From NCBI GenBank assembly GCA_000990585.1, contig LBQD01000001.1, positions 1-60,964 on the forward strand: a DNA stretch of 60,964 nucleotides, written 5' to 3'. Each line of letters starts with the position of its first letter. Position 1 is the stretch's first letter. Under the pieces are notes generated by a model that worked only from the letters and a program-made list of their open reading frames with translations, did not search any database and was not told the origin of the DNA. Both the position numbers and the translations under genes were made by a program. This stretch comes from Candidatus Moranbacteria bacterium GW2011_GWE2_35_2- (GTDB taxonomy: Bacteria; Patescibacteriota; Minisyncoccia; Moranbacterales; UBA9337). Below, piece by piece: positions 25,057-57,875 of this stretch.

Positions 25057-25145
25057 TTTGACAAAACGTGTAAAAAGTATTATTATTGTTTGGACGTATT
25101 AAGTTAAGTATTGTTTGATACATTGAAAATTTTGCTTTATATCAA

Positions 25146-25549
25146 GGTAAATCGGGCAATTGCTCTGCTGATGTTTTGCATTGGCGGAGAGGAAAGTCCG
25201 GACATTCCCCTGGTTTTATACTAGGGAGCAGGGTAGCGGCTCCGACGCTCGAAAGGGTGCGGAGTTCCGACATTGAAAAATCGTCGGAGGTAATGCCCGT
25301 CATGGGGAAACCCAAGAGGTGCGAGCAGAGACGTTTTATTTCGAAAGAAATAAAATATCCCCCTCACGAGGGATAAGCTCTTATAGTAATATAAGAGGTG
25401 AAACGGCTAAATCCTTACCTGAATGCAAGGTCGTACTCTGACGTTATGTCAGGGGGTGCCGCTTGACTCCGACGGTAACGTCGGAGCTAGATAAATGATT
25501 GCCACTCCGACCTTGCGTCGGAGGACAGAATCCGGCTTATAGATTTGCC
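25146..25549 (+). ncRNA. rnpB: RNase P RNA (bacterial type)
   Basis: 'gagaggaaagtccggac' (CR-I), 'acagaatccggcttat' (CR-V), P1 pairing 25146-25153 with 25541-25549. GC-rich island in an AT-rich context; TTGACA-17-TATTAT at 25058-25086 upstream. Confidence 0.9.
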
Positions 25550-25604
25550 TTGGTATGAAGTTGAATTTTTGTTGAAAGTATTTGTGGTGTATAATAGAAA
25601 TAAT

Positions 25605-39545: not shown

Positions 39546-40641
39546 ATGGAGGATATTAATCAAAAATTAGAAGAGTTGAAAAATAAAATCCCGAAACTTC
39601 GGGAATATCTTTGACTTGCCACAAAAAAAACAGAAAATTCTTGAATTGGAAGAAAAATCGGCGCAGGTCGGTTTTTGGGATGATGCACGTTTTGCCGGGG
39701 AGGTTATGAAAGAATTGGAAAATCTAAAAAAGGAAGTGGATGATTTTGAGAAAATTGAGCAGTGGGTAGATTATTTGGAGGAATTTTCATTGGTTGCGCA
39801 CAGCAAAGAAGAGGAAGATGAAATTGAAAAAGAATTGGGAAAATTGGAAAAAGAACTTGCAAAGTTGGAATTTCAACTTTTACTTTCCGGTGAATATGAT
39901 CGCAATAACGTTATTTTGGCGCTTCATGCCGGCGCCGGAGGAGTTGATGCACAGGATTGGACCGAGATGCTACTTCGAATGTATTTGCGTTTTGCGGAAA
40001 AAAACAATTTTAAAGCGAGAATAATTGATGAGGCGCGCGGAGCTGAGGCGGGAATAAAAAGCGTGACAATGGAAATTGATGGAGTATGGGCGTATGGAAA
40101 ACTTAAGGGTGAGGCAGGAACACATCGTTTGGTGCGGCTTTCTCCTTTCAATTCCGATAATTTGCGGCAGACATCTTTTGCTTTGGTGGAAATTTTGCCG
40201 GTGATTGAAGAAATAAAAGAGGTGGAAATTAATGATGGCGATATTCGAGTGGATGTGTATCGTTCGTCTGGGGCGGGAGGACAGAGCGTGAACACAACCG
40301 ATAGCGCGGTGCGTATTACGCATATTCCAACAGGAATTGTGGTGACTTGTCAGAATGAGAGATCGCAACTGCAAAATAAAGAAAAGGCGATGAAAATTTT
40401 GAAGGCGAAACTGCATCAAAAATATTTGAAAGAAAAAGAGGAGGAAAAGAAAAAATTGCGAGGAGAATATCGCAGTGCCGAATGGGGAAGCCAGATTCGT
40501 TCTTATGTTATTCACCCATATAAAATGGTCAAGGATCATCGGACGAAATTTGAAACTACCGAGCCGGAAGAAGTTTTGGACGGTGAACTGGGAGAATTTA
40601 TTGAAAGTTATTTGCGATTTTTGGCAGTTGCAGAGAAATAA
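39546..40641 (+). CDS. prfB: Peptide chain release factor 2, requires programmed +1 frameshift: join(39546..39611,39613..40641)
   Basis: Frame-0 ORF MEDINQKLEELKNKIPKLREYL stops at TGA 39612-39614. The +1 frame continues DLPQKKQKILELEE...; 'RLSPFNS' (SPF) and 'SGAGGQSVNTT' (GGQ). Confidence 0.93.
39600..39615 (+). promoter_or_regulatory. RF2 autoregulatory +1 frameshift site
   Basis: 'cgg gaa tat CTT TGA C', the canonical CUU UGA C slippery/stop context with an upstream purine-rich SD-like 'cggga'. Confidence 0.85.
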
Positions 40642-40701: not shown

Positions 40702-41382
40702 ATGATCAGATACGAAAATGTTGGAAAGATTTTCTCCGGAGATTTTGTGGCACTTGAGGATGTGAATCTTCAAATTGAAAAAGGGGAATTTGTCTCTGTG
40801 ATAGGGCATAGTGGCGCAGGCAAGAGTACCTTGCTTAAACTTTTGTATGCCGAAGAGCAACCAACTTCCGGGCAAGTGCTTTTTGACGGACGGGATTTGG
40901 CGACAATTAAAAAAAGGCATTTGCCATATTATCGCCGAAATATCGGAACGGTTTTTCAGGATTTCAAGCTTCTTAGCGAAAAGACGGTTTTTCGTAATGT
41001 TTCTTATGCTTTGGAAGTGATTGGAAAAACGAGTCAAGAAATCAATGAGGAAGTTCCTGAGATTTTGGACATTGTCGGTTTAGCGGATAAAATGGAAAAA
41101 TATCCCAATCAGCTCAGCGGAGGGGAACGACAAAAAGTTTCTTTGGCGCGCGCTCTTATTCATCGTCCAGCGGTAATTGTGGCGGATGAGCCGACAGGAA
41201 ATCTAGATCCGAATTCTAGTTGGGATATTATAAAATTGCTAGTGAAAATAAATGATCTGGGAACAACGGTTATTCTGGCGACTCATGATCGGGAGGTGGT
41301 GGATAAATTAAACAAAAGAGTAGTAGTTTTGGAAAAAGGAAAAATTGTGAGTGATTGCAAAAAGGGAAAATATGTGTGTTGA
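40702..41382 (+). CDS. ftsE: Cell division ABC ATPase FtsE
   Basis: 'GHSGAGKST' (Walker A), 'LSGGERQKVSLARAL', 'VIVADEPTGNLD'; directly upstream of ftsX. Confidence 0.92.
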   Translation: MIRYENVGKIFSGDFVALEDVNLQIEKGEFVSVIGHSGAGKSTLLKLLYAEEQPTSGQVLFDGRDLATIKKRHLPYYRRNIGTVFQDFKLLSEKTVFRNVSYALEVIGKTSQEINEEVPEILDIVGLADKMEKYPNQLSGGERQKVSLARALIHRPAVIVADEPTGNLDPNSSWDIIKLLVKINDLGTTVILATHDREVVDKLNKRVVVLEKGKIVSDCKKGKYVC

Positions 41383-41439: not shown

Positions 41440-42360
41440 ATGTTAAAAGAAAAATTTCTAAAATTAGGAAGGACTTTCAAGGAAGGATTGAATAATTTTT
41501 TTTATAATTTTTGGCTTAGTTTTGCTACTGTGAGTATTTTGGCATTGTCGCTGTATGTTGTGAGCGCGACAGCTCTTTTGGGAATAACAGGAAACTCAAT
41601 TGTTAATAATATTAAAAATAATATCAATATCAGTATTTACTTGAATCCGGATGTTTCCACGGAGGATGTGGATTTGATTCGCCAAGAAATTACAAATATT
41701 TCGGATGTTGCTTCAGTGGATTTTGTTTCAAATGATCAAGCTCTGGACAATTTCATTAATAATACGGGAGATGATCCGGTTATTTTGGATGCGATCAAAG
41801 AAATTGGCGATAATCCGCTTTTTTCTTCTTTGGTTGTGACAGCAAAAGACAGCGCTAAGTATGACGGAATCGCTTCTTCTATTGAAAAATCTTCTTTTAC
41901 GGATAAAATAAATTCTGTCAATTACACTAGAAACAAAGAAGATATTGATAAAATTAATGTGGCAGTGGAGGATGCGGGAAAAGCAGGGATAATCTTAGGA
42001 GGAATTTTTATTTTAATTTCAGTGCTTATTACATTTAACACGATTCGCTTGTCTATGTATTCTCGTAAGCAGGAATTTGAAATTATGCGTTTGGTTGGCG
42101 CTTCAAATATGTATATTCAAATGCCGATGATTTTTGAAGGAATTTTGTATGGATTTTTTGGTTCTTTGATTGCGCTTGCGCTTTTGCCACTCACGACAAA
42201 GTTTGTTTCTTCTTTGGCGGGAAGAATTATTTCCCAGGAGAGTTTGCATGCTTTTTATTTTCAATATCTCTGGATGATTTCGGGAGCGGTCTTGGCATTT
42301 GGAATTTTGTTGGGAGTGATTAGTAGTTTCATTGCAATTCGAAGGTATTTGAAAATATAA
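41440..42360 (+). CDS. ftsX: Cell division permease FtsX
   Basis: 1 TM plus an extracytoplasmic domain plus 3 TM; 'EFEIMRLVGASNMYIQMP'. Confidence 0.9.
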   Translation: MLKEKFLKLGRTFKEGLNNFFYNFWLSFATVSILALSLYVVSATALLGITGNSIVNNIKNNINISIYLNPDVSTEDVDLIRQEITNISDVASVDFVSNDQALDNFINNTGDDPVILDAIKEIGDNPLFSSLVVTAKDSAKYDGIASSIEKSSFTDKINSVNYTRNKEDIDKINVAVEDAGKAGIILGGIFILISVLITFNTIRLSMYSRKQEFEIMRLVGASNMYIQMPMIFEGILYGFFGSLIALALLPLTTKFVSSLAGRIISQESLHAFYFQYLWMISGAVLAFGILLGVISSFIAIRRYLKI

Positions 42361-42364
42361 AAAA

Positions 42365-43045
42365 ATGTCGGAAAGTAAAAAAGCACGAAAAAAAGTTGCA
42401 AAAAAATCGAAACCTTTAAATATTTCTACCGAGGGCAAGTTTTTGCTTGTTTTGGAGGAGATGAGGGATGAGATAAAAATAGTCGCTGAGGGTCATTCTG
42501 TTTTAGCAAGAGGAATGGATGAATTGAAGGATAAAATGGGCGGCATGGAAAAAAGAATGGATGGAATGGAAAACAAAATGGGCGGTATGGAAAAAAGAAT
42601 GGATGGAATGGAAAACAAAATGGGCGGCATGGAAAACAGAATGGATGGGATGGAAAGCAAAATGGGCGGCATGGAAAACAGAATGGATGGGATGGAAAGC
42701 AAAATGGGCGGCATGGAAAAAAGAATGGATAATTTTGAAAGCGAATTGAAAGGATTGAGAAAAGAAGTGAATGATAAATCGGAAGGATTGAGAAGGGAAA
42801 TAAATGATAAATCGGAAGAATTGAGAAAGGAAATGAATCAAGGGTTCAGAATGGTTTTTAATTATACGGAAAGAATTGAAGATGAAATCAAGGATGTAAA
42901 AAAAGAAATCGAAATTCTGCGCAAGGAATTGAAAAGTAAAGCAGATGTTCAAAGATTGGAAATTTTGGAAAAACGCGTCCAAAGAATAGAGCGGGATTAC
43001 GCCATTATAATGGACAAAAGCGATAAAAAATACAAAACGCAATAA
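42365..43045 (+). CDS. Repeat-rich coiled-coil protein with Met-rich 14-aa tandem repeats
   Basis: Lys-rich N-terminus, 5x (MGGMEKRMDGMENK)-like units, then 11-aa repeats (GLRKEVNDKSE). Starts 4 nt after the ftsX stop; no signal peptide or TM seen. Confidence 0.75.
   Translation: MSESKKARKKVAKKSKPLNISTEGKFLLVLEEMRDEIKIVAEGHSVLARGMDELKDKMGGMEKRMDGMENKMGGMEKRMDGMENKMGGMENRMDGMESKMGGMENRMDGMESKMGGMEKRMDNFESELKGLRKEVNDKSEGLRREINDKSEELRKEMNQGFRMVFNYTERIEDEIKDVKKEIEILRKELKSKADVQRLEILEKRVQRIERDYAIIMDKSDKKYKTQ
42536..42745 (+). repeat. Five tandem 42-bp in-frame repeats
   Basis: 'atgggcggcatggaaaa(a/c)agaatggatgg(a/g)atggaaa(a/g)caaa' units with only a few substitutions. Confidence 0.9.
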
Positions 43046-43058
43046 CCTTGTCTTGATA

Positions 43059-43087
43059 TTGACAGATTTTTTTAAAGTGATTATTAT
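43059..43087 (+). promoter_or_regulatory. Consensus-like promoter TTGACA-17-TATTAT
   Basis: ttgaca 43059-43064, 17-nt spacer, tattat 43082-43087. Confidence 0.65.
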
Positions 43088-43094
43088 TAAGTTG

Positions 43095-43530
43095 CAAGTT
43101 GAAGTTCTTCTTTTTGTTTACGCTCCGGAAGTGGAATGCCCGGAGCTGGACCCTCAACCGCCTTTACCGGCAAAGGAGAAGATATGATGATGCATCATCC
43201 CGTTCCCCCCCGGTCGTCCTGTCGTGGACGACCCGAAAAAATGGTTACTATCGGGACCATGCTTGAGCGCTTCCAAGACACCACCGCCTGTTCAACAACT
43301 GCTGACAATGTCTGCTGATGAAGAAAGCGGAAAATTTTCCGCGGGGAGGTTAAATGACTAAGGTCGGACGCTAGGAGCCCCATAGATAGAAGTTTTATGG
43401 GTAAAAACCAATATCGATATTGGGCTTAGATATTGGTGCTCCCGAAAAACTGCCCCCTCTTGTTGTCGGTGCGGGTCCCTTGCTGATCGATTAGAAAAGC
43501 AAGGGACTCTGTTTCTCTGTCTATTTTTTC
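43095..43530 (+). ncRNA. Candidate structured RNA / orphan transcription unit of unknown class (may embed a 44-codon ORF at 43184-43318)
   Basis: GC-rich island bounded by the promoter above and a 10-bp terminator stem (43475-43484/43498-43507). At least seven hairpins, including gctccgg/ccggagc, ggtcgtcc/ggacgacc, gcggaaaattttccgc and ccaatatcgatattgg. Confidence 0.5.
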
Positions 43531-43774
43531 AAAAAGGAAAAAGGAAAGAAATAGGTTCAGCAAATGAACTTCATTCCTGTTTTTCTCTCGAAAAACAAAT
43601 CCTGAAAAAATAGACAAAAAACCTTGTTCTTTTTTATAAAGAAGGCGATGGATGTCTTCTTATCGCGCAAGCGAGCAAATGCTATTGGAAAATCCCGTAG
43701 CATTTTTTATTTGTTTTTTTCTTGATTTTTAAAAAAGTTTGGTATAGTATTTATTAAGTGTGAAATTGCAATAT

Positions 43775-43845
43775 TGGGGATTAGCCAAGCGGTAAGGCAC
43801 AAGGTTCTGGTCCTTGCATCGGGGGTTCGAATCCCTCATCCCCAA
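43775..43845 (+). tRNA. tRNA-Gln (anticodon CUG)
   Basis: TGGGGAT..AGCCAAGCGGTAAGGC..tt-CTG-gt..GGTTCGAATCC..ATCCCCA; extended -10 'tggtatagt' upstream. Confidence 0.92.
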
Positions 43846-43922
43846 CATTAAATAAAAAACCAATTTATTTCGTTGGATATTTTTTCTTTGCATAAATCTC
43901 TGTTTAGTGTAGTATTTGTTAT

Positions 43923-44666
43923 ATGAATGAAATTAAAAATGCAGAAAAAAACGAGTATCCGATGAGAATTAACAAATATTTGGCGCAAAAAGGAATTTGT
44001 TCCCGGCGGGAGGCAGACGTCTTGGTGGCGCGTTCGTTGGTCAAAATCAACGGCAGAAACGCCAAAGTTGGCGACAAAGTTTCCGAGGGCGATCAAGTGG
44101 ATGTGAGCAAGAAAGTTAAAAATTTCAAGAAATTGCAATATTTTGCCTTTAATAAGCCAGTAGGAATCGTGACAGTGAGCCCAGTTGAGGGAGAAAAAAG
44201 CGTGGCGGATATTGCCGATTTTCCCGAGGGAGTTTTCACGGTTGGGCGGCTCGACAAGGATTCGCACGGGCTTATTGTCGCAACTAATGACGGAAGGATT
44301 ACAGGAAAACTTCTTGATCCGAAATATGATCACGAGAAAGAATATCGTGTACGCGTAGACAAAAAGCTTAAAGATCGGTTTTTCCGTATTGTTTGCGGGG
44401 GAATGGATTTGGAAGGTGGAGAAATTACCAAGCCGTGCAAAGCTCGGAAAATTGATGATTATACTTTTAATATTATTCTTTCCGAAGGAAAGCGCCATCA
44501 AATCAGAAGAATGTGCGCCGCTTTGGGATACGAAGTACTCGATTTAAAAAGAGTAAGAGTGATGAGCATATATTTGGGAAATTTGCGATCCGGCGAAAAA
44601 AGGGAAATTGTCGGGAAAGAGCTGGCAGAATTTTTGCGTTTGTTGAATGTCGATAGCAGAAATTAA
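43923..44666 (+). CDS. Pseudouridine synthase, RsuA/RluB family (S4 plus catalytic domain)
   Basis: 'MRINKYLAQKGICSRREAD' (S4), 'GRLDKDSHGLIV' (catalytic Asp), 'EGKRHQIRRM'. Confidence 0.9.
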   Translation: MNEIKNAEKNEYPMRINKYLAQKGICSRREADVLVARSLVKINGRNAKVGDKVSEGDQVDVSKKVKNFKKLQYFAFNKPVGIVTVSPVEGEKSVADIADFPEGVFTVGRLDKDSHGLIVATNDGRITGKLLDPKYDHEKEYRVRVDKKLKDRFFRIVCGGMDLEGGEITKPCKARKIDDYTFNIILSEGKRHQIRRMCAALGYEVLDLKRVRVMSIYLGNLRSGEKREIVGKELAEFLRLLNVDSRN

Positions 44667-45213: not shown

Positions 45214-46458
45214 ATGAAAAATCTCAAAAAACAAGATCCGAAAGTGTACAAAGCGATTCAAGGAGAAATCAAGCGGCAACAGGAAGGAATGGAATTGATT
45301 GCCAGTGAGAATTATGTTTCTGAGGCGGTGCTGGAAGCGTTGGGAACGGTTTTTACCAACAAGTATAGTGAAGGCTATCCGAAAAAGCGATATTACGGCG
45401 GACAGGAATATACTGATGTTGTCGAGCAATTGGCAATTGACCGGGCGAAAAAACTTTTCGGTGCCGAGCATATCAATGTCCAACCGCTTTCAGGAGCGCC
45501 GGCTAATATGATTGCCTACAGTGCGGTGCTTCAGCCGGGCGACAAAATTTTGGGAATGGATCTTTCTCACGGAGGACATTTGACGCACGGTCATCCTGTT
45601 ACTCTTTCCGCGAAGGTATATAATTTTGTTGGATATAAAACCGGAGCGGATGGAAAGATTGATTATGACGCGTTGGAAAAAATGGCGATGGCGGAAAAGC
45701 CAAAAATGATTTTGGCGGGATTTTCCGCTTATACTCGACAACTTAATTACCGAAAATTTCAACAGATTGCCAAAAAAGTCGGGGCGATTACAATGATTGA
45801 TGTTGCTCATATTGCAGGACTGATTGCCGGAGGAGCGATTCCCAATCCGGTTCCATATTTTGACATTGTTACAACTACGACGCACAAAACGCTTCGCGGT
45901 CCGCGTGGAGGAATGATTATGTGTAAAGAAAAATTTGCCAAAGCAATTGATAAAGCAACTTTTCCTGGATTTCAGGGTGGTCCACATATGAATAATATTG
46001 CCGCCAAGGCGGTGGCATTTGGCGAAGCGCTCAAGCCGTCTTTCAAAAAATATGCCACTCAAGTAATTAAAAATGCCAAGGTTTTAGAAAAAGAATTGAA
46101 AAAATATGGGTTCAAATTGATGTTTGGGGGAACGGATAATCATATGGTATTGGTGGATGTTTTTGGATCGAAGGGTGTGAGCGGAAAAGAAGCGGAAGTA
46201 GCATTGGACAAAATCGGAATCACGCTCAATAAAAATATGATTCCTGATGATCCTAGAAGCCCGATGGATCCAAGCGGAGTGAGAATCGGTGTTCCGGCCG
46301 TAACAAGCCGCGGGATGAAGGAAAAAGAAATTGAAAAAATCGCCAAATGGATCAATGACGCAGTCGAAAATCACAAAGATGAAAAGAGATTAAAAGAAAT
46401 TCACAAAGAAGTGATTGCTCTTTGCAAAAAATTTCCGTTGTATAAAAATTTGAAATAG
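45214..46458 (+). CDS. glyA: Serine hydroxymethyltransferase
   Basis: 'ELIASENY', 'YSEGYPKKRYYGG', 'VQPLSGAPAN', 'TTTTHKTLRGPRGG'. Confidence 0.97.
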   Translation: MKNLKKQDPKVYKAIQGEIKRQQEGMELIASENYVSEAVLEALGTVFTNKYSEGYPKKRYYGGQEYTDVVEQLAIDRAKKLFGAEHINVQPLSGAPANMIAYSAVLQPGDKILGMDLSHGGHLTHGHPVTLSAKVYNFVGYKTGADGKIDYDALEKMAMAEKPKMILAGFSAYTRQLNYRKFQQIAKKVGAITMIDVAHIAGLIAGGAIPNPVPYFDIVTTTTHKTLRGPRGGMIMCKEKFAKAIDKATFPGFQGGPHMNNIAAKAVAFGEALKPSFKKYATQVIKNAKVLEKELKKYGFKLMFGGTDNHMVLVDVFGSKGVSGKEAEVALDKIGITLNKNMIPDDPRSPMDPSGVRIGVPAVTSRGMKEKEIEKIAKWINDAVENHKDEKRLKEIHKEVIALCKKFPLYKNLK

Positions 46459-56259: not shown

Positions 56260-56422
56260 ATAATCATCATTTTTTCTAAACTGTGCATAACTCACCTGTG
56301 AAATACTTGACAATATTTTGGTTTTCTGATACAAAAGAAAATCAAATGAATGTTGTTTAACAACTTTAGGCGTAGAGGTATTCTCTGCGTTGAAAAATGA
56401 AAAAAAAGAAAGGAGTAGTAAA

Positions 56423-57286
56423 ATGAAGAAAAGTCTTTTAGTAACATCTTTGTTGATGGTTGGTCTGTCTTTCTCAGTACCCTCTTTTGCACAGCAGAAT
56501 GGGGGTCCGACCACGACGGCAACCGCGACCGGTGTTGGGCAGGCAACTGCCACCAACGCTCCCGTTACAACCACGACGATTGCGCCAACGGTTCAAGCAG
56601 GGGCAGGGGTTGAGATTATTGACAATGGTGTCAATAATTCAAGAACAACAGTCGTTAACAGACAGATTCCAATGATCGGAGTCCCTGGTGGTCCCGATGC
56701 TATGCAGTATTTCGGGGCGTGGAAAGATGTTCCGGCATGGAATGTCTTCCCGCCAAGTATCGGGATGAAGTGGGTGAAATCAGGCGAGAAGGTTACCGAT
56801 ACTCCGTATCGGGAAATCTTCAAGAAGATTTATACCACTTATCCCCGGAGCGAGGCGGTGTCAATGGTCGGATTTGGTGCCGGCAAGGGCGAGCTTATTG
56901 GTCAGATGGCGGTTATCCTTAATTCTGATCAAGGTACGCCAGATGCTGAGGCTATTGTAGTAACCGAAGCGTTACACATTGGGGCAACGTTGGTGGAAGT
57001 ACTGTCATCATCCTCTAACCAGTTGCCAACCTCATCGGGTTGGCATATCGGTTTTGGCGGTGGTGCCGGCGGAGTTGTTGGCGGAGACGAAAAAGCTGCC
57101 TTGTCCGGAGCTGGTGGAACTGGCTACGGAAAATCGGATTTGGAGATTAAGAGTCTCCCGTTTATGCAGGTGCGTTTTTGGCGCAACGAAGATGTTAATC
57201 AATCTTCGGTAACCAAAGCGGAAACCCCGGTCGCCACATCTTCATCAGTGGTTCCTGTCCCTCAGAAATGGGAGGCTGGAAAATAA
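56423..57286 (+). CDS. Secreted Thr/Gly/Ala-rich protein, unknown family
   Basis: SD 'aaaggag'; signal peptide MKKSLLVTSLLMVGLSFSVPSFA|QQ; locally GC-rich. Confidence 0.65.
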   Translation: MKKSLLVTSLLMVGLSFSVPSFAQQNGGPTTTATATGVGQATATNAPVTTTTIAPTVQAGAGVEIIDNGVNNSRTTVVNRQIPMIGVPGGPDAMQYFGAWKDVPAWNVFPPSIGMKWVKSGEKVTDTPYREIFKKIYTTYPRSEAVSMVGFGAGKGELIGQMAVILNSDQGTPDAEAIVVTEALHIGATLVEVLSSSSNQLPTSSGWHIGFGGGAGGVVGGDEKAALSGAGGTGYGKSDLEIKSLPFMQVRFWRNEDVNQSSVTKAETPVATSSSVVPVPQKWEAGK

Positions 57287-57443
57287 TCATTTTATATTTA
57301 TTAATTAAGTGAAAATATAAATCAATAAAAGGAGGTGATTGATACTTTTTTTCTGAAGTAAAATGAAAACGGCACGGAGGTGTTCTCTGCGCTAAATGAC
57401 AATAAAAAAGGGAGCACAAAATGCTCCCAGTAAGGAGATCGAA

Positions 57444-57875
57444 ATGAAAAAGTTTCTTTCAACAGTTGCCGTAGTCGCCATTTTTGCCTTTTCCGCCTCT
57501 GTCGCAAGTGCCTGTGGAGGGTATTCGTATGTCGGAGGGGACGTTTCATCTTCCCTTTACGGCGGCGTAAGTGGCGGCGCGTTGCAGGTTGACAGTTACT
57601 ATGGTGGGAGTATCTATGCGTACACCCCGACCGGGACTGTTTATGCTGGGATGTCGGTGCAGAATTCCATTGGCGCCAATGCCGGATATCGCGGTTCCGT
57701 CGATGTTTCCACATCGGGCGGTGCCGGATTTTTCGATAATGGAGGTGCCGGCATTTCGACCTGGTCCGGCGTATCGGCCAATGTCGTTGCGTCCAATGGG
57801 TCGGCGGCATGGGGCTCCACTCAGGCAAACGTCTGGGCGGAAAAATACGGCAGTGTTGCTACCGTAGCCCGTTGA
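57444..57875 (+). CDS. Secreted (possibly lipid-anchored) Gly/Ser/Tyr-rich protein, unknown family
   Basis: SD 'aaggag'; signal peptide ending 'SVASA|CGG'; low-complexity G/S/A/Y sequence; GC-rich. Confidence 0.6.
   Translation: MKKFLSTVAVVAIFAFSASVASACGGYSYVGGDVSSSLYGGVSGGALQVDSYYGGSIYAYTPTGTVYAGMSVQNSIGANAGYRGSVDVSTSGGAGFFDNGGAGISTWSGVSANVVASNGSAAWGSTQANVWAEKYGSVATVAR

Follow-up and report, generated by a model that had tools for sequence, protein, structure and literature searches.

The window analysed here is a stretch of 60,964 nucleotides from Candidatus Moranbacteria bacterium GW2011_GWE2_35_2-, a groundwater Patescibacteria metagenome-assembled genome (MAG) of the Moraniibacteriota, within the candidate phyla radiation. 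Its sequence is identical to contig DODQ01000006 of GCA_003508935.1 and to several ENA and JGI contigs, and its relatives carry the names Candidatus Moraniibacteriota or Parcubacteria. The subject of this work is an RNA element on the + strand, at about 43059-43712. It is placed between the gene of a Met-rich repeat coiled-coil protein (42365-43045) and that of tRNA-Gln(CUG) (43775-43846, + strand, called by ARAGORN and Rfam), which has its own promoter-like site, TTGATT-17-TAGTAT, at 43722-43750. The genes prfB (39616-40641), ftsE (40702-41382) and ftsX (41440-42360) lie on one side, and a rluB-like gene (43923-44666) and glyA (45214-46458) on the other. The immediate flanks (ftsEX, rluB and glyA) are housekeeping genes and include no phage genes.

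We consider it somewhat probable that the element is a separate gene for a lineage-restricted large structured non-coding RNA, about 620 nt long in the window and 660-820 nt long in relatives, running on the + strand from 43059-43087 to 43677-43712. A preliminary description of the locus had proposed a novel structured RNA of roughly 430 nt, possibly with a second function as the messenger of a 44-codon open reading frame (ORF). The structured RNA is largely upheld by the missing Rfam match, the syntenic conservation and the pair-keeping changes. The boundary and the terminator are revised, and the ORF is not sustained as a protein.

Further alleles were sought through the members of the 90% RluB cluster, at the same position upstream of rluB. 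Four full alleles are read: A (the window), A' (L012, L014 and L015), B (L006 and L007) and B' (L017). Contigs with an exactly matching RluB protein carry an identical element, L031 being identical to the window, and at least two more B-type alleles are deduced from contigs of the sequencing runs X8 and X15/X16. Each genome has one copy of the element. The sequence of tRNA-Gln is 100% identical across all alleles and starts 63 nt past the terminator U run in every one of them, and the RNA and tRNA-Gln always occur together. Synteny is lost below about 63% RluB identity. A search for homologues in related bins, as the preliminary description had suggested, finds the element in the syntenic position within a narrow Moraniibacteriota clade. 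A pattern scan with the core motif described below over 185,579 species genomes returned three Moraniibacteriota MAGs and four chance sites at ordinary gene junctions. The same scan gave chance matches only in JGI metagenome contigs and nothing in IMG/VR, where the motif of the 3' domain D4 had two chance matches, both of which fail the covariance model. Because the core-motif scans yield only the three Moraniibacteriota genomes and nothing real in JGI or IMG/VR, the family appears to be restricted to one small, genus-level clade.

The promoter TTGACA-17-TATTAT (43059-43087, + strand, 11 of 12 matches), already recognised in the preliminary description, is the sole sigma-70-like site that a promoter scan places within 42800-44000, and transcription is expected to start near 43094. 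The site is identical in allele A' (39/39 positions in L012). At the same place L006 has TTGACA-17-TAATAT and L017 has TTGACA-17-TAGTAT, despite differing surroundings, so that the geometry is kept in all four alleles and their common form is TTGACA-17-TAnnAT.

The 3' boundary is different from the one first proposed. The supposed terminator at 43475-43507 does contain a 10-bp stem (43475-43484/43498-43507) with a 13-nt loop and a U6 run about 13 nt downstream of the stem. A terminator scan of 42800-44000 made no call there, and the U tract that follows is one strand of a 14-bp helix that pairs with 43603-43616, in domain D4. In the folds, the probable 3' end region (43639-43712, + strand) consists of small hairpins at 43639-43661 and 43663-43674, the latter with a GCAA loop, and of a terminator-like hairpin (43677-43685/43697-43705) with a U run to 43712. 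At the equivalent place L006 and L017 have a strong G+C hairpin followed by U6, directly before the tRNA-Gln promoter. Since D4 uses the U tract of the supposed terminator and the terminator that follows D4 in the B alleles is much stronger, the transcript probably ends near 43712, and 43475-43507 is more likely an internal stem-loop. The conserved domain at 43513-43620 and the second terminator at 43677-43712 thus lie beyond the unit of about 430 nt. With its ends predicted in this way, the transcript is probably about 620 nt long and reaches about 190 nt past the end given before. The span from promoter to terminator is 619 nt in the window and 657-816 nt in relatives.

All four alleles share the promoter, a Shine-Dalgarno sequence (SD) with an AUG, the core, a large stem-loop or multibranch domain followed by a pyrimidine tract, D4, and a final hairpin with its U run. 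In the folds, the 5' domain (43094-43183, + strand) contains a hairpin at 43122-43146, the block CUGGACC at 43146-43152, also present in L006 and L017, and a second hairpin at 43161-43176 that overlaps the first SD (SD1, AAAGGAG, 43172-43178). Two changes in L012 affect the first hairpin, C43126>U giving a G·U pair and A43129>G adding a pair. The 44-codon ORF1 (43184-43318, + strand) follows, within a fast-changing GC-rich module.

The invariant core (43316-43357, + strand) is composed of (C)UGA(UGA)AGA, a hairpin at 43327-43342, GGAGGUUA at 43345-43352 and AUGA at 43354-43357. Its consensus over the four alleles is (C)UGAAGA-NN-hairpin-GGAGGUUA-N(1-2)-AUGA, by sequence an SD and a start codon, and it is the only long motif common to both A-type and both B-type alleles. 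The core hairpin has 6 bp in A and 12 bp in B, with a G·U pair in L006 where L017 has G:C. A box C/D-like k-turn formed by UGAUGA and CUGA was considered by eye and rejected; the A alleles cannot form it because the two motifs overlap in them. The AUG of the core opens a mini-ORF2 (43354-43374, + strand), read from the sequence as MTKVGR, whose stop codon UAG abuts the next helix and in both A and B ends on the first base of that helix.

Downstream of the core hairpin, the A-lineage domain D2 (43343-43456, + strand) is closed by GGGG.GGUU (43343-43351) pairing with AACU.CCCC (43448-43456). A helix within it (43374-43378/43438-43442) encloses two hairpins, and the local fold has a z-score of -3.0. 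A D2 architecture shared by A and B was drawn by hand (GGAGC/GCUCC against GUGGC/GCCAC, both followed by CGAAAA) and discarded: the A model misses B, and the B folds prefer other pairings. Next comes the large stem-loop T1 (43471-43512, + strand), which includes the stem of the supposed terminator and whose position is occupied in the B alleles by a multibranch domain. The last large domain, D4 (43513-43620, + strand), is an AT-rich three-way junction outside the coordinates of the preliminary description. It has a 14-bp pyrimidine/purine closing helix (43518-43531/43603-43616), an inner helix (43542-43546/43574-43578) and hairpins at 43554-43570 and 43579-43596. Across the alleles its purine tract stands about 85-110 nt downstream of the pyrimidine tract with which it pairs, and its local fold z-scores are -5.9 in the window, -5.5 in L006 and -3.9 in L017. 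A long-range pairing of 43261-43289 with 43643-43672, present in the window's minimum free energy (MFE) fold, is lost in L012 and is probably spurious.

The alleles were compared within and between the two lineages. Within the B lineage (L006 against L017), third positions of rluB are 82% identical, whereas the core block is 89% and the stem-loop domain 92% identical. In the latter domain, the seven substitutions that fall in paired columns all keep the pair via G·U (7/7), which holds for the + strand only, and none breaks one; roughly half of random transitions are assumed to be pair-compatible for this comparison. Within the A lineage (window against L012), third positions of ftsX are 73% identical, whereas 43297-43472 differs by one substitution (168/169 aligned bases identical, with three indels). 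Here C43500>U and U43508>C, both by way of G·U, and A43614>G preserve pairs only if the + strand is the RNA, and in T1 of L012 an 11-nt insertion on the 5' side together with changes on the 3' side extends the stem from 10 to 14 bp. Between the lineages (window against L006) third positions are 65-68% identical and the primary sequence of the element is near random outside the core. The G+C content (50-67%), the hairpin density and the fold z-scores persist despite this divergence. A covariance model built from the single D4 sequence of L006 finds the syntenic D4 of L017 (E 5e-17), L012 (2e-4) and the window (2.4e-3). In the alignment fitted to this model nearly all of the 44 pairs are standard in all four alleles, and about 13 change on both sides. 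The closing helix differs in sequence from allele to allele, and its length is 14 bp (window), 12 bp plus extensions (L006) or 16 bp (L017). By eye, one D4 hairpin passes from AAGCUC/GAGCUU (L006) to AAGUUC/GAACUU (L017), and GUUUUUC/GAAAAAC in A corresponds to GUUCUUC/GAAGAAU in B.

The 5' two-thirds of the RNA are GC-rich and hairpin-built; their hairpin sequences turn over fast, without loss of stability or G+C. Allele A' of L012 has 77 unrelated bases in place of 43246-43296, and L017 and X15/X16 carry an additional GC-rich hairpin in the tip of a 5' hairpin. In X8 and X15 the ORF1 region is replaced (160 to 114 nt and 239 to 203 nt), as is the stretch after the core (108 to 86 nt). In run X8 (L022:250-1250), from groundwater, a B-type allele with three replaced modules reaches 74x depth, and the L022 contig also holds the end of a Met-repeat gene near the window's (5 differences in 137 nt). 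Since this contig joins a B-type allele with the end of a window-like Met-repeat gene, RNA alleles may pass between otherwise close genomes.

A rival reading is that the element has no function of its own and is a hairpin-rich spacer or a mobile-element scar that arrived with tRNA-Gln, foreign and GC-rich, with palindromes made by template switching. The locus is variable indeed. Both the RNA and tRNA-Gln are missing there from three members of the 90% RluB cluster, in which the space upstream of rluB (L013:1978-2853, L019:1329-2843, L030:730-1551) holds unrelated genes, as in a variable hot spot; in L013 one of them encodes a 291-aa protein with a weak Bro-N domain, which is phage-associated. 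In L017 the 3'-terminal 17 nt of tRNA-Gln (AATCCCTCATCCCCAAC) recur 63 nt past the gene, and the two copies (2779-2795 and 2859-2875) flank a short GC-rich hairpin insert; this direct repeat resembles a scar left by site-specific integration or excision at the tRNA. Only one copy of this tRNA end is present in the window, L006 and L012. The swapping of modules between alleles and the clustering of perfect palindromes in the element also fit a scar. On the other hand, the promoter, the core and the structure of D4 persist between lineages with 65-68% identity at synonymous sites, 43297-43472 has its one substitution between A and A' against 73% synonymous-site identity, and G+C is maintained against the AT bias of the genome. 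The element also lacks any similarity to phages and any second copy in the window or in three genomes, and we regard an origin as idle spacer or scar as unlikely. Three related candidates were rejected: a phage or foreign source for the modules, for which BLAST shows no similarity to phage records; a REP-like multicopy repeat, the element being single in the window and in the three genomes; and the template of a diversity-generating retroelement, which lacks a second copy in the 61-kb window and whose modules differ in length and at all bases.

The composition of the element had been the first mark of a structured RNA. The G+C content of 43095-43520 is 49.8% against 36.9% for the whole window (standard deviation of 200-nt windows 6%), and the peak of 56% within the element belongs to the top 1% of 200-nt windows. 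The element does stand far above the background, as first described, and is not unique in the window: values of 55-60% also occur in coding stretches at 12.3, 35 and 56.4-57.9 kb, at the 23S end and in the RNase P RNA. The most GC-rich stretch (up to 60%) is coding (56390-57286 and 57396-57875), and its proteins of 298 and 159 aa are rich in Gly, Thr, Ser and Ala and have N-terminal hydrophobic, signal-like segments. High G+C marks the fast-changing 5' two-thirds, and the best cross-lineage support for structure lies in the AT-rich part. The G+C of 50-67% is retained in non-homologous modules, although the genome has 37% GC.

The hairpins listed in the preliminary description are reproduced in the MFE folds (43122-43128/43140-43146, 43161-43176, 43212-43219/43226-43233, 43327-43342, 43379-43386/43394-43401, 43408-43423 and 43475-43484/43498-43507). 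Against shuffled sequences the MFE z-score is -3.1 for 43095-43525 (431 nt); for the whole element it is -6.8 in the window (43094-43712), -13.4 in L006 and -6.8 in L017. The + strand folds better than the minus strand in three of the four alleles. Three of the window's 14 perfect palindromes of at least 14 nt are inside 43186-43423, where about 0.06 are expected. They lie at 43186-43199, 43327-43342 and 43408-43423 and have the self-complementary centres UGCA, AAUU and AUCGAU; in the RNA, such hairpin loops could join two molecules by base pairing. In addition, CCAAUAUC is able to pair with either of two copies of GAUAUUGG (43416-43423 and 43429-43436).

The two reading frames raise the main alternative, a structured small-ORF mRNA or dual-function RNA in which ORF1, mini-ORF2 or both are translated and the structure gates the ribosome-binding site, the peptide being fast-evolving or irrelevant and the act of translation being the signal. 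ORF1 is present as first described, with 44 codons at 43184-43318, and a version of 60 aa starts at 43136. In all four differing alleles an SD at proper spacing and an AUG precede a frame of 44-48 codons, and the second SD and AUG form the most conserved block of the element. Further, the indels that separate A from A' within the first 21 codons allow a reading as multiples of three, ORF2 stops against the same helix in both A and B, and SD1 and SD2 are both predicted to be paired. The coding tests are negative. The other frames of this stop-poor stretch are equally open. The G+C content at the three codon positions of ORF1 is flat (0.52-0.57/0.54-0.67/0.50-0.73) against 0.50/0.34/0.36 for the genes of the window, and the codon-adaptation index stays at 0.48-0.52 in all frames, where real genes reach 0.64-0.72, so that no frame has a codon bias. 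By manual count, the differences between L006 and L017 fall evenly over the codon positions; in L012 other sequence takes the place of the second half of ORF1 and puts the stop in another frame. No homologue of ORF1 is present among 5.8 billion clusters or 1.84 billion representatives and no Pfam domain is matched, in agreement with the earlier remark that its product belongs to no recognisable family. The ORF1 peptides are hydrophilic and proline-rich, with no membrane helix, signal peptide or hydrophobic segment, and no maturation enzyme is encoded nearby. The mini-ORF2 peptide is not conserved either, because its counterparts differ: MTKVGR in the window, MILVVGV in L006 and MILIFDGFGVIG in L017. 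By eye, a short frame within D4 is out of register between L006 and L017. The 44-codon frame thus shows no coding signature and no conserved peptide, contrary to the dual-function product first suggested. Since the coding tests are negative while SD and AUG are kept, the conserved parts appear to be the ribosome-binding sites and not the peptides. We regard the small-ORF mRNA as rather unlikely, and a non-coding RNA that retains ribosome-binding sites as the better account.

A related possibility is a type I toxin-antitoxin-like locus, in which a stable, locked mRNA would encode a small toxic peptide in the hok/sok manner. The hok/sok-type toxin mRNAs are long, stable and tightly folded, with small ORFs and a buried ribosome-binding site, and the element resembles them in its length of 0.6-0.8 kb, its high degree of structure, its sequestered SDs and its two small ORFs, with pairing of its 5' and 3' ends predicted in the B alleles, a narrow distribution and a fast turnover. 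It differs from them in its ORF1 peptides, which are hydrophilic, proline-rich, unconserved and without a membrane helix and so offer no hydrophobic toxin, in having no minus-strand promoter-like site in 42800-44000 for an antisense RNA, and in being single copy. A toxin locus is thus the least credible of the readings considered.

The proximity of tRNA-Gln, in turn, suggests that the element could be a cis-acting leader or co-transcribed precursor of the tRNA that controls read-through or tRNA processing. The two always occur together, 63 nt apart, and GOLLD RNAs are sometimes covalently linked to tRNAs (PMC12286853). Between them, however, intervene a terminator-like hairpin with a U run, strong in B, and a separate conserved promoter-like site. 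No T-box is matched and no consistent complementarity to the tRNA is found: a T-box-like or sponge binding of tRNA-Gln was rejected, the best duplexes varying in place and being no better than shuffles in two of the four alleles. A tRNA leader is accordingly very unlikely.

Searches against known RNA families are negative. Rfam 15 at the gathering threshold gives no match to the element in the whole window. At E<=10 on 42950-43780 only low-complexity chance matches appear, downstream of 43460 and far below threshold, and at E<=1 L006, L017 and L012 yield the tRNA only. In none of the four alleles does either strand match a family; the models without match include tmRNA, SRP, 6S, RNase P, riboswitches, T-box, GOLLD, ROOL, OLE, HEARO and group I/II introns. 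ARAGORN gives only two tRNAs in the window and no tRNA-like domain for the element. The covariance search recommended in the preliminary description, with both strands covered and no family matched even at E<=10, therefore agrees with its failure to recognise a tmRNA, SRP RNA, 6S RNA or riboswitch, and the ARAGORN result points the same way. A CsrB-like GGA sponge was also considered; about 15 GGA against about 10 expected, on a rough count by eye, is unconvincing. For comparison, the RNase P RNA of the window (25144-25555) scores 115.5 against an Rfam gathering score of 100, barely above it.

The element is several hundred nucleotides long with many conserved stems and junctions, its ends being predicted, and so is of the large-RNA kind. 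A tmRNA (RF00023) is likewise a structured RNA with an internal short reading frame, and tmRNA genes are often beside mobile-element integration sites. The element differs from it in lacking a tRNA-like domain and in having an SD and an AUG before its frame, both of which are missing from the tmRNA frame. RNAIII of Staphylococcus is a structured regulatory RNA of about 0.5 kb with a short, translated ORF behind an SD; its peptide, delta-haemolysin, is conserved, whereas neither ORF of the element is. The closest likeness is with GOLLD and ROOL, large RNAs found near tRNA genes and often in prophages (PMC12286853, PMC5737381). In GOLLD the 3' region is conserved and the 5' region variable, and the RNA is reported to pull down ribosomes (PMC12286853, PMC5737381); ROOL averages 581 nt, forms multistem junctions near tRNAs and has no known protein partner (PMC5737381, PMC12286853). 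The element shares with GOLLD (RF01998) its large size, many stems, the adjacent tRNA, a variable locus and the layout of conserved 3' and variable 5' parts, and with ROOL (RF03087) its size, multistem junctions and adjacent tRNA. It is not a member of either family because it fails both models, that of GOLLD even at E<=10. It is also shorter than GOLLD (620-820 nt), has no phage genes in its immediate flanks in the window and occurs in one Moraniibacteriota clade, of genus level, whereas ROOL spans several phyla. The phage context of the element thus consists of housekeeping flanks, the att-like tRNA repeat of L017, the weak Bro-N domain in L013 and an absence of phage similarity.

Expression is suggested, and only suggested, by a wastewater cDNA library (X9). 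One contig of 160 nt in this library is a 141-nt insert with adaptor at both ends, identical to allele A' over 43306-43451 (window numbering) and with a word depth of 13.7. The flanking genes are without coverage (20 kb of the window and 4 kb of L024), and the sole fragment of the organism lies within the RNA. The metatranscriptomes that the source study obtained from groundwater (X10-X12) are too small to inform on this point. Runs X9, X11 and X12 contain fragments of the conserved core of RNase P RNA from other organisms only and none from the organism of the window.

Several points weigh against a separate non-coding RNA gene. The expression signal comes from one short insert, which may represent PCR duplicates of a single molecule, and DNA may be present in the library. 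A statistical covariation test is impossible because there are only four full sequences in two lineages, and the D4 alignment is fitted to its model. A covariance model of the A-type D2 does not detect the B alleles, so that D2 beyond the core, and with it much of the structure, is lineage-specific. In the window the minus strand folds about as well as the + strand (-224 against -216 kcal/mol). The three perfect, loop-less palindromes could be protein sites at the DNA level or products of template switching, and the SD and AUG kept at ORF1 and ORF2 are equally compatible with an mRNA. The element is very narrowly distributed, being confined to one genus-level clade, and no partner protein and no phenotype are known.

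The mechanism that we propose is conditional on the RNA gene being real. The RNA would act in trans as a stable folded particle. Its invariant core, a perfect ribosome-binding site lying within a helix in the folds, would dock 30S subunits or ribosomes; we infer this docking by a partly buried SD-AUG core from the pattern of conservation. The docked ribosome would then either be held or translate a mini-ORF of 6-12 codons and irrelevant sequence, which would refold the downstream domain. The variable GC-rich hairpins would serve as structural padding that evolves by hairpin turnover. In its variable locus the RNA travels together with tRNA-Gln as a single cassette, which recalls the position of GOLLD and ROOL next to tRNA genes. 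A more far-reaching version of this proposal is doubtful. It would make the element the Patescibacteria counterpart of GOLLD and ROOL, a new class of large RNA in a tRNA-linked mobile cassette, that docks ribosomes via its buried SD-AUG core and perhaps self-assembles via its self-complementary loops, with GC-rich modules swapped under diversifying pressure, such as conflict with phages or with the host cell of an episymbiont.

The neighbouring Met-rich repeat coiled-coil protein is variable as well. It is built of MGGMEKRMDGMENK units, has no Pfam family above threshold and differs in length by strain (226, 204, 170, 169 and 148 aa); among the strains compared (the window, L004, L006, L012, L014 and L017) its gene is absent from L017.

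The narrow distribution of the element and the lack of a cultured host set practical limits to its study. Bacteria of the candidate phyla radiation have tiny genomes with little non-coding DNA, and an RNA gene of 0.6-0.8 kb that such a host keeps by a tRNA, at a high G+C against the bias of its genome, is for this reason unlikely to be idle. Its mosaic design, in which a fixed core and 3' domain are combined with exchangeable hairpin modules, is a natural experiment on which parts of an RNA matter. If real, the element would be a new family among the large bacterial RNAs, such as GOLLD, ROOL, OLE and raiA, and the first from this phylum.

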